IMG/VR virus record: IMGVR_UViG_3300025261_000058
Direction: 5' to 3' (one strand)
Length of the DNA: 64,000 bases
Origin: an uncultured virus (IMG/VR IMGVR_UViG_3300025261_000058)
Lineage: Duplodnaviria > Heunggongvirae > Uroviricota > Caudoviricetes
Shown here: positions 2,648 through 34,389 of the stretch, in pieces
How positions within the stretch are numbered: position 1 is the stretch's first letter
Layout: every line of letters begins with the position of its first letter
Made by a program: the position numbers and the translations under genes
The notes under the pieces: generated by a model
Told to the model about the DNA's origin: nothing
The model's database searches: none
Seen by the model: the letters and a program-made list of their open reading frames with translations, nothing else

Positions 2648-2872
2648 GTGGACTTTGAGTCATGGTTTCGCGCAGAGGTGATCGCCGATCGGCTCTACGG
2701 GGCAGACGAGGATGCGGCGCGCTTCACGTGGGATGCCGCGATGACGATCGCTGCGTCGGTTTGCGAGCGACATGCCGAGAACGCTGGCGACGATGAAGCA
2801 TATTCGGTTGGCTCTGGCTGTGCTGCTGAGATCAGGGCAATGAAGACCGCGCCGCAACCGGCGGGAGATTGA
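2648..2872 (+). CDS. Hypothetical phage protein
   Basis: GGAG RBS, GTG start. Confidence 0.5.
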   Translation: MDFESWFRAEVIADRLYGADEDAARFTWDAAMTIAASVCERHAENAGDDEAYSVGSGCAAEIRAMKTAPQPAGD

Positions 2873-5669: not shown

Positions 5670-5698
5670 TTGACAAGATACCCATTGGGTACGATACT
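5670..5698 (+). promoter_or_regulatory. Sigma70 promoter with palindromic operator in spacer
   Basis: TTGACA-17bp-GATACT; TACCCA-T-TGGGTA at 5679-5691. Confidence 0.8.
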
Positions 5699-24525: not shown

Positions 24526-25956
24526 TTACTTACGTTTCGACCAAAATTCGTCGTGGATCTGATTGATGTCTTTTGCTTCTGCCGCTGCGTCGGTGGTCTT
24601 ACGCGCGACGGTCATGTTCTTGCGCTTGACGAGTTCCGATGCTGCGTGGAATGCCATCTTGGCTGCGGCGCAATCCATCTTGGACACGTCGGCGTCACCG
24701 GTGATGGCTCGCACGAGATCGGCGTTATCGTTTGTCAGCGCTGCACGCAGGGCGCGGCGACGCAGAACGCAAATCGAGTCCGCGGTCTTCTTGCCGTCCG
24801 CCTTGGCGTCGAACGTTGGCAACTTCACGCCCGGGGCGAGGATTTCGGCGCGGGCCTTGGCGTCCTGGAACTCGTCGCGGAACGAAGCTGAATCGTTGGT
24901 CGACTTCTTCTCGTCGTCCTTCTTTTCCTCTTCTTCGTCCGAATCGTTTGTTTCCTCGGACTCTTCCATTTCTTCGGCTTCGTCTTTGGTTTCCTCGTCC
25001 TTCTTCTCTTCTTCAGAGTCGTTGGTCGGGCCAGCTTCGAGCTTCGAAACCCGCTCGCCGATTGCTGCAACGGACTCGGCGACAGCCTTGATCGCGTCCA
25101 TGACCTGAGCCATCGGATCAGCTTCGGACTCGTCGTCCTTCGTTTCTTCCGCTGCGTCGGCCTTTTCGGCGCCGGGCATGTGAATGTGGATGGCGGGGAC
25201 GTTGCCAGCCGCGCCGTCTTCGTCTTTGACTTCCTCAGACAACGCTTTTTCGAAGGCTTCCGAATCGCGCGTCATGAAGAGCTTGCGCAGCTTGTCCTTG
25301 AGGGATTCAGCGCCTTTCTTCGTTGCCATTAATGGATCTCCAATGGAGGTTGGTAGTGAGTCCTGCACGGAGCAGGCTTCGCCGCAGCGGGCCGAGCCCG
25401 CCAGCAGCGCAACGTGGTTGCCCACGATGTCCGTTTGCCGAGCACGTCCCGGCGCGATCTGCAGATATCCCGCGTCGTACCCGCAGGAGATTTCTTTGAG
25501 CCGCTTGGTCTGCACGTCATGAATGGCGCCCTTGTCTTGAATCAGGAGGTCAGCCATCAAGAAGTCACTCATTTCGCCGTCGCCGCGGCGCACGTTGTGG
25601 ACGGACCCTTTGGCGTAGACGATCCAGTTATCTGGCGTGACTGGCTCGCGCGGGTGCTCGATCGTTACCGGTGCGCCTTCGAACGATGCGATGGCCTCTG
25701 GATTGAACACCTCATCCTCGGTTCGCTCGACTTCAATCACGCCGTCCTTATCTTCGATATCCGGAAGTTCGGTCGCGGCGTAGTCTTGGACGCCGATGCG
25801 AGCGATCGGCACGTCCTGACAGAGAAGGGCGCCACTGGCCAGCAGCGACTGCTTCGGGCCGATCTGCTCAGTAGCGAGCATGCCGCTGGCCGTGATTGCA
25901 TCTTTCGTCGGCGCGCGCTTGCTCACGCACGCTTTGCATTCGCAGGCATTGGACAT
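24526..25956 (-). CDS. Prohead protease/scaffold (DUF2213)
   Basis: SFEG.PVT..HP, E.SCGYD, NHVAL....RCG; acidic C-terminal half. Confidence 0.88.
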   Translation of the reverse strand: MSNACECKACVSKRAPTKDAITASGMLATEQIGPKQSLLASGALLCQDVPIARIGVQDYAATELPDIEDKDGVIEVERTEDEVFNPEAIASFEGAPVTIEHPREPVTPDNWIVYAKGSVHNVRRGDGEMSDFLMADLLIQDKGAIHDVQTKRLKEISCGYDAGYLQIAPGRARQTDIVGNHVALLAGSARCGEACSVQDSLPTSIGDPLMATKKGAESLKDKLRKLFMTRDSEAFEKALSEEVKDEDGAAGNVPAIHIHMPGAEKADAAEETKDDESEADPMAQVMDAIKAVAESVAAIGERVSKLEAGPTNDSEEEKKDEETKDEAEEMEESEETNDSDEEEEKKDDEKKSTNDSASFRDEFQDAKARAEILAPGVKLPTFDAKADGKKTADSICVLRRRALRAALTNDNADLVRAITGDADVSKMDCAAAKMAFHAASELVKRKNMTVARKTTDAAAEAKDINQIHDEFWSKRK

Positions 25957-26015
25957 ATAAGGAACGTAGGGAGACCCGCGCGGAGCGGGCTAAGTGATTG
26001 TTCAGACGCGGAATT

Positions 26016-26043
26016 TTGCGTTTATGGCAACTGGGTCTATAAT
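26016..26043 (+). promoter_or_regulatory. Sigma70 promoter opposite to the head operon
   Basis: TTGCGT-16bp-TATAAT. Confidence 0.65.
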
Positions 26044-26050
26044 TGATTTT

Positions 26051-26123
26051 GAGACCCCGGACGTTCAAACCATCCCGCCCTGGCAGCGTGTGAGGTACGT
26101 TACTTAAACGGCGGTCTCTTTTT
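26051..26123 (+). ncRNA. Candidate ~70-nt hairpin sRNA
   Basis: Starts 8 nt after TATAAT; GAGACC/GGTCTC closing stem followed by T5; no ORF. Confidence 0.5.
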
Positions 26124-26616
26124 ATTTCACGATGCCGTGGTCGTAATAGCGGCGCCCGTCTGAATACCGCTTCACAGTCAGGATTGCGTTGTGATGCTGT
26201 CCGTCAATCTCGATCGGAGCGTGATACGTCTCCACAGACAGAACGTTGACATCGCCACGCTTGTCTGATGCCGTTGCAATCAACTTCGCGTTCTCAAGCA
26301 GGGAAGGTATGGCCGGGACCGTCCTGACTAAGGTGTCGGATGCTCCAGACAGCGTGTGCTTGACGCCCTTCCTGGTCACCTCAATTTCATTGCCAGTAGC
26401 TCGGTTGCTGAACGACTTTCCGATAAAGCGATCGGCATGTTCCAAGGCTTTCTGCCGAAGTTCCTTCATGCTCGTGTAGTCACCGAGCTCGTCGCCTTTC
26501 AGTGCTACAGCGCCACCACCACCCGCTCCGAATTGCCCATTCTCCTTACGCGGATGGTTTTGTTCCTCCCACTTCGCGTCGTGAACGTGGAGGTAAATAT
26601 GAAGCGCTTGGGGCAT
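26122..26616 (-). CDS. LPD3/BECR-fold-like polyvalent-protein domain with N-terminal HPR..G.F motif
   Basis: W.E..HPR..NGQF then N..TG..I.V...G..H...LL..A...Y...I.I.G......TVK....G..YYDH. Confidence 0.65.
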   Translation of the reverse strand: MPQALHIYLHVHDAKWEEQNHPRKENGQFGAGGGGAVALKGDELGDYTSMKELRQKALEHADRFIGKSFSNRATGNEIEVTRKGVKHTLSGASDTLVRTVPAIPSLLENAKLIATASDKRGDVNVLSVETYHAPIEIDGQHHNAILTVKRYSDGRRYYDHGIVK

Positions 26617-27363
26617 CTAGTCAGGGATGATGGGTTCGGCATAGCATCGGCAATTCCAGATACATCCAGGGTGCGCACGCTCGCCAGATCGCTCATCGGC
26701 GACGGGCGGGTTGTTCCACTGGAAAATCTTGCCGTTGAGCGCACGGTGATCGCTGCGTACGGTCGAATCGCCGCTGGTGCGCCAGATGTACGAATCGGCG
26801 CCTATGTGTTCGGCGCGAGCCTGGGTCAGAGTGGCCGCGGTCCTCGCGGTCTCTGTGCGTGCAATCAATACAGCGCGAGAGGTGGTGACTTCCTCAGTGC
26901 GCAGAATCTCTTTCGCGATCTCGCTGGCCCGTGTGCTGTTCTCGACACCCTCAAGAGTGAGCCGATGCACCCGCTGCGCCGCCTCAAGCGGAATGCTCTG
27001 GATGAGCGTTACCTGCTCGGCCAGCAGCTGCTGCATCACGCGGCCGGTCGGCGCATTGCGGATTTCTTCGCGAAGGCCGCGGGACAGATCCTTGGCCATC
27101 GTCGCCCACGCCTGTTCGTCACGTAGCGCGACGTCCATCAGCATGTCGCTTGCGGTTTGCGTCGCCCAGCCTCTGAGCATGTCCGAGTAGGCTTTGAGCA
27201 ACTGCTCGATGGTCGGGACCGCACTCATGTCGCCGGGAGTGAACGGCGACACAATGGAACCGACCTGCTGCGCGACCTTGCGAAGTTGCAGGGCATAGCG
27301 TTGCTCGGCGCGGCCCGTCTTGACCGGGTTGCGGCTGCGCTTGCGGTCAAGGGTGAGGGTCAT
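26617..27363 (-). CDS. MuF/SPP1 gp7-like head morphogenesis protein
   Basis: RA.LIARTET, Y.W.T.GD..VR..H..L.G..F.W, HPG...NCRC. Confidence 0.92.
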   Translation of the reverse strand: MTLTLDRKRSRNPVKTGRAEQRYALQLRKVAQQVGSIVSPFTPGDMSAVPTIEQLLKAYSDMLRGWATQTASDMLMDVALRDEQAWATMAKDLSRGLREEIRNAPTGRVMQQLLAEQVTLIQSIPLEAAQRVHRLTLEGVENSTRASEIAKEILRTEEVTTSRAVLIARTETARTAATLTQARAEHIGADSYIWRTSGDSTVRSDHRALNGKIFQWNNPPVADERSGERAHPGCIWNCRCYAEPIIPD

Positions 27364-33468: not shown

Positions 33469-34389
33469 TCATGTCGCCTCTCGCTCCACGAATTCCCATC
33501 TGTATCCGTAAGCGCTTTTCCTGCGCCCGGCGCACACATGGCTCAGGTATGAAGACGTAGCCTTTGATATTCCCGAGTCTTTCAGCCAGATCACCGCATG
33601 CACCAGCGATTCAAACACCTTGCCGGTATCAACGATTCTGACGGGCTTTGCCCTTGCTGCGAATGATGCTGCAGCGGCTTGGGCCCTAGCTTCTGGTGAT
33701 CGAGCGTTCATCGCCGCCGATAACTTCGCCCTGTGATCATCTGACAGGCGCTTGCCCATGCGGGCTGCGGACAACTTAGCGCGCGTCTCTGCAGTCACAA
33801 CCCGGTTCTTCAGCCGTTCAGACCTCCTGCGCCGCTCATCGGGAGATTGACCAAACAGTGTGCTCTTGGCGGACAAGATTGCTTTGGTTTCGGCAGATAG
33901 AGGTTTCCCCCGCCTTGCTTGCGCGGACCTCGCTATCGCCTCGGTCGTCGGCGACTTTCCTTTGCGAATGGCAGATGCTTTCTCCCGCCACTCCGGAGTA
34001 TCCCGGATCGCCCTCATAGCCGCCCTGGCAGCCGCGGACATCTTTCTGCCAGTCAAGGCAGCAGAAATCTTGTGGCATGTCGCCTCAGGGCGTTTCATGC
34101 CGAGATGACTGCCCGCAGTCTTGCAGATGTTGTAGCCCGGCACCAAGCAATCAATAGCTAGCTGCTCATACATGAGCAAATCAGGCTTTCCGCAGATCAA
34201 CAGGATCTCAAACCGCAACCCTGACTCGCCATGCTTTTTAAATGCCGATTGCAGATGCGGGTTATGGTGCGACCCTGCTCGAAGGTGATGAAGATGGACA
34301 TGCCACCTTCTTCTGATATTAACCGCCGAGCCTACGTATTGCTTCCCAGACGCGCTGGTAATGGCATAAATGCCAGCAACGTTATTCAT
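33469..34389 (-). CDS. GIY-YIG homing endonuclease with NUMOD3-type repeats
   Basis: GIYAI...YVGSA..I.RRW..H, E, YN; repeated G.K.S.ET.AK.S. Confidence 0.92.
   Translation of the reverse strand: MNNVAGIYAITSASGKQYVGSAVNIRRRWHVHLHHLRAGSHHNPHLQSAFKKHGESGLRFEILLICGKPDLLMYEQLAIDCLVPGYNICKTAGSHLGMKRPEATCHKISAALTGRKMSAAARAAMRAIRDTPEWREKASAIRKGKSPTTEAIARSAQARRGKPLSAETKAILSAKSTLFGQSPDERRRRSERLKNRVVTAETRAKLSAARMGKRLSDDHRAKLSAAMNARSPEARAQAAAASFAARAKPVRIVDTGKVFESLVHAVIWLKDSGISKATSSYLSHVCAGRRKSAYGYRWEFVEREAT

Follow-up and report, generated by a model that had tools for sequence, protein, structure and literature searches.

The LPD3 locus in the head operon

The window, by which we mean the whole stretch of 64,000 nucleotides that was analysed, makes up almost the whole of a provirus record of 65,238 bases from an uncultured virus. 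By inspection, the provirus carries a repressor-like and an integrase-like gene, and the phage is temperate. According to Pfam and PHROG, the order on the minus strand is terminase, portal, MuF, LPD3 gene, DUF2213 head maturation protease, cement and major capsid. The LPD3 gene is separate from MuF, i.e. MuF ends at 26617 and LPD3 has an ORF of its own. The 165-nt gap downstream of it holds an RNA gene. The features of the region are:

24526..25956, minus strand: DUF2213 head maturation protease/scaffold gene (Pfam DUF2213, PHROG 530), the downstream neighbour, given as context.
25975..25994, minus strand: small GC-rich hairpin ahead of the protease gene, from folding.
26015..26043, plus strand: predicted sigma-70-type promoter of the small RNA, from the sequence (12.4 bits).
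26051..26123, plus strand: small structured RNA of 73 nt, from folding, the covariance model R1 and pair counts.
26076..26088, plus strand: apical stem-loop CGC-[CCUGGCA]-GCG of the RNA, from sequence and folding; type C has a GAAA-capped stem instead.
26102..26108, plus strand: 7-nt 3' bulge ACUUAAA of the RNA (ACUYAAA in the closest types).
26122..26616, minus strand: 164-aa LPD3 gene (Pfam PF18798, E 8e-31).
26617..27363, minus strand: short MuF head-morphogenesis gene (Pfam Phage_Mu_F, PHROG 324), the upstream neighbour, outside the cassette.

A hairpin similar to that at 25975..25994 is found at sites without LPD3, which makes it a part of the host operon rather than of the cassette. The gap between the LPD3 gene and the next gene contains no plausible immunity ORF of at least 60 aa, in agreement with a preliminary description of this DNA, which had noted that no protein immunity gene is adjacent. 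A PADLOC scan gave no defence-system match. The cassette is also present in cultured phages, e.g. BgManors32.

Predicted fold of the LPD3 protein

An N-terminal leader, HxD/WxExxHPRxxNGxFG, precedes the LPD3 domain (26143-26472). The Pfam match to LPD3 (PF18798) covers residues 49-158 with 107 bits against a cut-off of 27. It is the only family found by the Pfam scan at E 0.1, which gave no PBECR or MuF_C profile, and the toxin families ToxN, CptN and TenpN had no match in the Pfam and PADLOC scans.

To evaluate the fold we used a model of the domain made from 52 sequences (pLDDT 95.3). It contains a beta-hairpin, a short pre-alpha helix, a longer helix and four strands, and this predicted secondary structure agrees with the description of Colicin-like BECR domains, i.e. 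a pre-alpha helix, a helix and a four-stranded meander. Structurally, the model comes closest to CdiA-CT of Serratia BWH57 (Z 6.1, rmsd 3.0, 80 aligned) and CdiA-CT Kp342 (Z 5.7, rmsd 3.4, 88 aligned). BrnT has a Z of 5.0, followed by RelE-type toxins, MqsR, YxiD and colicin D; the full-length model gave similar matches. Judged from their titles, BECR-type toxins make up 12 of the 14 top rows, and the non-BECR chain TraM ranks fourth. All these Z-scores are below 8, a range that may reflect a common fold only. The best Foldseek E was 7e-3, with none at or below 0.001, and a sequence search of solved structures with the LPD3 domain found no match. The preliminary description had called the gene LPD3/BECR-like and proposed structure prediction as a check. 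The LPD3 assignment is confirmed by the profile score, and a BECR-type fold is supported by the colicin-like topology of the pLDDT-95 model, with middling structural scores (Z ~6, at best 6.1).

Characterised members of the Colicin-like BECR group mostly cut tRNA, and their site consists of Lys-His on the pre-alpha helix together with conserved residues on the last strand (bioRxiv 10.64898/2026.08.28.747851). CdiA-CT Kp342 has a Lys-Tyr-Thr triad (PMC9086364). In the LPD3 protein, K86-H87 lies on the pre-alpha helix and Y158, D159 and H160 on the last strand, an arrangement that agrees with the Colicin-like site by sequence position only. Among 176 diverse domain rows, Y158 is conserved in 96%, D159 in 79%, H160 in 68% and H/K87 in 77%. 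Position 87 is His in just 45% across the wider family, so some members may be inactive. The domain would then be a catalytically active RNase, and most likely one that cuts tRNA.

The protein is probably made late and packaged in the head, given its head-operon position, the portal fusions in relatives and a D-[A/S/G] motif before the HPR leader. This motif is present in 49 of 51 proteins and resembles motifs in the neighbouring protease; our literature search on DUF2213 cleavage specificity found no useful source for such a rule. In one locus (L214, 3259 onward; L numbers are our locus handles) a 149-aa ORF has the leader HIHI...FEESKHPR..NGQFG without an LPD3 domain, so the leader appears to be a portable module, perhaps for head packaging.

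A promoted small RNA faces the gene

The promoter had been described as TTGCGT-16-TATAAT opposite the gene, and both boxes are there: the -35 box TTGCGT at 26016-26021, a 16-nt spacer and the -10 box TATAAT at 26038-26043. The -35 box agrees with the consensus at three of six positions. A weight matrix of approximate sigma-70 frequencies reads the site best as TTTGCG-17-TATAAT and ranks it among only three plus-strand sites of at least 11 bits across the 64 kb. In relatives the -10 box is retained and the promoter spacer has diverged. Other strong sigma-70-type sites in the window lie at 5693 (+), 48348 (+) and 34488 (-), the first of them in the tail region.

The RNA, which probably starts near 26050, is an irregular hairpin with a closing stem, a 7-nt 3' bulge, a GAGG/CCUU-type stem, internal loops, an apical stem-loop and a U tail. 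Stem P1 joins 26051-26059 to 26109-26118 and includes the closing pair GAGACC (26051-26056) with GGTCTC (26113-26118); P2 joins 26060-26064 to 26097-26101. The T5 tract (26119-26123) shares its last two bases with the LPD3 stop codon (26122-26124). The RNA of about 70 nt first described, closed by GAGACC/GGUCUC and ending with U5 at the stop codon, is thus found as reported. The apical loop CGC-[CCUGGCA]-GCG, also pointed out then, is present at 26076-26088 and is not universal, as 5 of 31 rows have a GAAA-capped stem. The most constant unpaired segment is the 3' bulge ACTTAAA at 26102-26108, not the apical loop.

Taken alone, these elements of the window are within chance, because the RNA has a fold z of -1.7 and a stock scan called neither a promoter nor a terminator at the RNA. 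Rfam gave no match among 4227 models for the window RNA (best E 3.6) and none in 8 related loci. A look for transcripts gave one run (X1), which covers only 25742-25892 and speaks neither for nor against the RNA. The observation, a promoter and a hairpin RNA facing the LPD3 gene, is real, and it rises above chance through the comparison with relatives.

The RNA is conserved in sequence and structure

Between the window and L004, the RNA is identical at 73 of 73 positions, fourfold-degenerate sites of the gene at 22 of 50, the promoter spacer at 10 of 16 and the LPD3 protein at 139 of 164. Further relatives keep 67 (L008), 63 (L006), 54 (L010) and 61 (L009) bases of the RNA, and 3-5 of the 16 spacer positions.

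The covariance model R1 was built from 25 members, and 31 distinct sequences were aligned with it. In this structure-guided alignment 80% of the cells pair. Two-sided changes are seen at 15 of 21 pairs, a count that leans towards pairing since the alignment is fitted to the structure; in the same fitted alignment the covariation is 0.336, compared with 0.169 for shuffled and 0.05-0.17 for slid controls. The unguided RNAalifold found 11 pairs, six of them with two-sided changes, and the mean fold z of the 31 family members is -2.8. Judged from these alignments, the RNA is under purifying selection and its stems covary. A search of the 64-kb window with R1 gave one match, the next best scoring 15 bits.

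RNA and gene are gained and lost jointly

We compared 80 viral loci with a related MuF gene, using R1, which detects the RNA type of the window only. LPD3 is present at the MuF-DUF2213 site in seven loci, which represent three distinct sequences. The RNA was found in all seven and in none of the 73 others (E < 0.1), nine of which have no downstream DUF2213 match. None of the seven LPD3-bearing MuF loci has a C-terminal extension of MuF. In the loci without LPD3 the site is empty or holds small ORFs or HNH- and GIY-YIG-like genes; free-standing HNH-like/GIY-YIG-like endonuclease genes are seen there in L165, L166, L170 and L174. The exact 21-nt core of the RNA occurs in only eight viral contigs, all with close LPD3 relatives, and these are the same eight that were found by protein. 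In a search of 400 genomes, only 5 had a PF18798 match. Gene and RNA are gained and lost jointly.

An antisense promoter follows LPD3 domains across the family

The preliminary description had suggested a survey of LPD3/PBECR genes for such convergent units. We used 30 LPD3 clusters at 60% identity with enough flank, after dropping 14 LPD3 matches without a locatable end motif, and approximate promoter weights. An antisense promoter of at least 10 bits lies within 240 nt of the domain end in 21 of 30 clusters, compared with 1/30 on the sense strand, 1/30 upstream and 2/30 further downstream. The distance from the domain end to the end of the -10 box is 90-125 nt in most clusters. The promoter is seen even within ORFs that continue for hundreds of codons.

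A second score was computed from the protein only, by averaging over codons. It reaches at least 7 bits for an antisense promoter after 93 of 137 LPD3 domains, compared with 13 on the sense strand. After ART-PolyVal control domains the same score is found in 28 antisense and 28 sense cases of 115; the difference between LPD3 and ART has a p of 3e-11. In one 2377-aa protein, units follow PBECR3 and both LPD3 domains, and no unit of at least 10 bits follows ART or MuF_C; this gene has three further antisense promoter matches that are not after a mapped domain end. PBECR3 genes in Neisseriaceae-like and other loci have a convergent RNA family of their own. No convergent RNA was found in the inspected stretch of L292, a PBECR3 locus.

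Each nuclease type has its own RNA

In Neisseriaceae-type phages the domain forms the C-terminus of the portal protein, after the same HPR leader motif. This C-terminal domain is exchangeable, being LPD3 of type X, Z, Y or W, or PBECR3, and for types X, Y, W and PBECR3 each nuclease type is followed by its own RNA fold. The RNA types map onto protein clades where these are supported (Y 100/99, C 100/100). Matching of RNA and protein types is also what physical linkage alone gives. Type B RNAs are near-identical whether the gene stands alone (L009) or is part of a long fusion (L040, L071).

Extra RNA units are found in 31 loci, many of them near-duplicates, with eight distinct arrangements, and the full cognate genes are mostly gone. 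The stacked units in relatives are mostly of different types. The largest stack described here, at L280 1878-2640 (also in L290), packs six RNA units, which belong to five or six types, and five promoters into 760 bases. It sits between portal-PBECR3 and MuF, and the lost genes are left as short 3' stubs only. A longer LPD3 stub is kept with its RNA in L111, a PBECR3-type RNA is kept in L037 where the PBECR3 gene is gone, and in L055 a W unit and a second copy of Y are present, both with promoters of their own. The AT-rich loci L132 and L136 contain stacked LPD3 C-terminal stubs, RNAs and promoters of other alleles, with RNAs unrelated to that of the window.

The X-type RNAs of L041 (2510-2585) and L045 (2490-2560) are circularly permuted relative to one another, a sign of a folded element. 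Orphan X copies in L044, L047 and L053 have changes in the closing stem or core. Trimming of the coding parts, with RNA and promoter left whole, is what a collection of immunity genes should show. The stack junctions are marked by repeated MuF-start sequences, and from the sequences the stacked RNAs could be recombination scars.

Beyond the PBECR3-type RNA, L070 (3780-3880) and L037 (~2730-2830, minus strand) share a promoter-led structured unit without an Rfam match, and L279 has another unit beyond its PBECR3 RNA.

The 3' bulge resembles a tRNA anticodon loop

In 28 of 31 rows the 3' bulge contains UYAAA. The tRNAs used for comparison were read from G001 and G004 loci. An exact tRNA 7-mer is found in the bulge of 14 rows, the other 17 having no exact match. 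The 13 closest rows have ACUUAAA or ACUCAAA in the bulge, the sequences found at positions 31-37 of tRNA-Leu(UAA) and tRNA-Leu(CAA). Among the seven single transitions in the bulge, only the one at the wobble position keeps a tRNA match, and 4 of 105 arrangements of the bulge match some tRNA loop. The joint chance of the anticodon match is ~1-2% over three candidate segments, for a match that was noticed after the fact. The base following the bulge is C; it is A in the tRNAs. Read as a T-loop motif, the bulge would fit equally well. Given the antidote model described below, we consider the chances for and against tRNA mimicry by the RNA about balanced. The PBECR3 RNA has a hairpin, CG-[UUUCGGA]-CG, that fits the anticodon-loop pattern but equally a UUCG loop.

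Several other readings were set aside. The apical loops match a tRNA 7-mer in 2 of 31 rows, out of register, and we rejected them as anticodon mimics because position 37 is a pyrimidine and the loop is replaced in type C. A likeness to the T-arm/D-loop of tRNA-Pro was discarded, as chance alone should give, roughly counted, one 11-mer match of this kind. Codon avoidance was rejected as evidence for a tRNA-Leu target: UUA/UUG codons are scarce in MuF genes beside LPD3 (27/295 vs 177/1074), a scarcity due to GC3 (mean residual -0.02), and the AGA/AGG control shifted equally.

The search for a trans target in the window gave none that is convincing; the best was 13 nt and is treated as chance. 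It is a match to the apical stem-loop at 34020-34032, within a GIY-YIG gene (33469-34389, minus strand), which makes the RNA complementary to the GIY-YIG mRNA, probably by chance.

A model for the cassette and its rivals

We put it at a little better than an even chance that the LPD3 protein is a virion-borne RNase blocked by a cognate protein-binding RNA, which is possibly a tRNA-loop mimic. The head operon would then carry a two-part cassette, a gene for a predicted colicin-like BECR ribonuclease and a facing, separately promoted RNA that binds and blocks the enzyme and gives allele-specific immunity. The RNA would be made from a host-type promoter in lysogens and right after DNA entry, with no translation needed. 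It would act on the protein, probably as a decoy with a tRNA-like loop (ACUYAAA) that the enzyme cleaves slowly or not at all. Such a poison-antidote unit would spare lysogens and cells that keep the incoming genome, and cells or rival phages without the matching RNA would be harmed. The orphan stacks would be the RNA versions of orphan immunity arrays, and as such add support to an antidote role. A translation-free antidote would suit a toxin that stops translation.

The preliminary description had proposed a similar mechanism, a virion-associated nuclease neutralised by a decoy RNA. The LPD3 domain, a BECR-type fold and the separately promoted RNA are supported; the type III features and the argument against antisense are not.

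A wider reading is more tentative, and we regard it as possible rather than probable. Here LPD3 and PBECR would make up a large phage polymorphic-toxin system with RNA immunity, in which the alleles are injected from the virion and tRNA-loop-mimicking RNAs come from the incoming genome, with tRNA-Leu(UAA/CAA) as the target in the present case. If the RNA-immunity reading is true, destruction of the phage DNA would deprive the host of the antidote and leave it poisoned, and arrays of orphan RNAs against rival alleles would be gathered by phages and perhaps by hosts. Immunity would be kept as a library written in RNA rather than protein, with up to six RNA genes per enzyme gene.

Silencing in cis, in the style of lambda OOP or of a type I toxin-antitoxin, is in our view unlikely. 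The RNA would pair with the late mRNA past the LPD3 stop codon, RNase III would cut the duplex, the leaky LPD3 message would be destroyed in the lysogen, and the RNA structure would serve only stability and the initiation of pairing. The convergent layout with its own promoter and terminator is what this predicts, and every base of the RNA can pair with the operon mRNA, in its intergenic part and at two nucleotides of the stop codon. On the mRNA strand no U-tract closes the hairpin, so read-through is expected. It had been argued earlier that the RNA barely overlaps the ORF and so is no simple antisense; the overlap is small, as stated, but the conclusion does not follow: late mRNA that reads on past the gene would contain the full complement of the RNA, and cleavage by way of lambda OOP, too, takes place outside the coding sequence of cII (PMC5869508). 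The bulge, moreover, holds a YUNR U-turn. YUNR U-turns are common in antisense recognition loops. However, any transcript of the opposite strand is complementary in cis, and this alone would not keep a non-coding 73-mer unchanged as synonymous sites saturate; the invariant unpaired bases and the one fold per allele are left unexplained as well. A single RNA would cover the operon message, yet L280 keeps six folds and five promoters. Where the domain is fused to the portal or lies in a giant virion protein, the phage cannot do without the target message, and as portal-fused nucleases must be made in lytic growth, silencing of the mRNA should be unable to guard against them.

Somewhat less likely again, we think, is that the RNA is a working partner of the protein, as scaffold, guide or decoy in an LPD3-RNA ribonucleoprotein that acts against host defence RNAs or proteins, or in a selfish mobile module. 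The insertion site is also taken by HNH- and GIY-YIG-like genes, which would suit a mobile module, and Iyer et al. suggest that PBECR domains may target CRISPR RNAs (PMC5512222). In L120 the promoter of the RNA abuts a CRISPR array of five repeats. On the other side, the loops are constant across insertion sites (L009, L040, L071) and are not site guides, the window offers no convincing trans target beyond the 13-nt match, and RNAs are kept after loss of the protein, which fits immunity better than a cofactor. The RNA as an insertion-site guide was rejected on the same ground, as its loops do not track the site. This CRISPR-like array (L120, region 756-1030) is on the RNA's strand of a 1-kb metagenome contig and starts ~40 nt upstream of the RNA promoter.

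That there is no functional RNA, the hairpin being a terminator or scar and the promoter-like site chance, would explain the fold z of -1.7 alone and the empty stock scan, and is very improbable in view of the selection, the inner-stem covariation, the promoter enrichment against four kinds of control and the co-occurrence with the gene.

Comparison with known systems

To our knowledge, the type III layout is the only one in which an RNA is known to act as antidote to an RNase, and polymorphic toxin systems use proteins for immunity. Our literature search, mostly outside subscription journals, found no description of an RNA linked to LPD3 or PBECR. The present analysis contributes the test of joint gain and loss, the comparison with ART domains, the RNA folds specific to each allele, the stacks of orphan units and a candidate for the loop that is mimicked. 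The RNA units are invisible to annotation and many are antisense inside coding linkers. The system is testable with a 500-nt gene and a 73-nt RNA.

In type III toxin-antitoxin systems (ToxIN, CptIN, TenpIN) a non-coding RNA blocks an endoribonuclease by direct binding, as we propose here, and the antitoxins are specific for their own toxin (PMC5086642). There, RNA and toxin share one operon in which tandem RNA repeats and a terminator precede the toxin gene, and the toxin processes the repeats into pseudoknots (PMC5086642). The RNA of the cassette is in contrast a single unrepeated hairpin, downstream, on the opposite strand and with its own promoter, while the protein is LPD3/BECR and the setting a phage head operon. 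The cassette would work like a type III system, as suggested earlier, but it is not a member of type III: the upstream antitoxin in the same operon, the tandem repeats and a ToxN/CptN/TenpN toxin are all absent.

Lambda OOP is likewise a small RNA with its own promoter and terminator that converges on the 3' end of a phage gene (PMC5869508). Unlike the RNA proposed here, it pairs with mRNA and partly overlaps cII (PMC5869508). The cassette differs from OOP in its selected unpaired bases, in having a fold per nuclease allele and in RNAs that outlast their genes. Convergent type I toxin-antitoxin loci also have a small RNA facing the 3' end of the toxin gene.

The closest solved folds belong to the CdiA-CT Kp342/colicin D group of tRNases (PMC9086364), with Z 5.7-6.1 and 14-15% identity. 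This group has protein immunity and bacterial export (PMC9086364), whereas LPD3 here is phage-borne with an RNA. The main text of the bioRxiv preprint 10.64898/2026.08.28.747851 does not contain the term 'LPD'. Fremin et al. 2023 (PMC10690425) list one uninterpreted 48-nt Bacteroides-phage candidate, DNAVirus_4052, upstream of LPD3; its taxon and position differ from those of the cassette.

The MuF polymorphic toxins (Jamet et al. 2017, PMC5576092) are also found in the packaging module of temperate phages, with a variable toxin-like domain beside or fused to head proteins, and their C-terminal domains swap between relatives, as here. In the cassette an RNA gene takes the place of the small downstream immunity ORF of the MuF toxins (PMC5576092), and the domain is free-standing or fused to the portal, not to MuF.

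Iyer et al. 2017 (PMC5512222) described PBECR domains as predicted virion-delivered RNases fused to MuF and portal, present in up to 26% of polyvalent phage proteins. Their main text names LPD3 once, not placing it among the BECR domains, does not use the word 'antisense' and describes no RNA partner (PMC5512222). They could not say what PBECR cuts or how the phage survives (PMC5512222). A cognate RNA gene behind each domain is a possible answer to the question of survival, and stacked orphan RNA immunity genes would be new.
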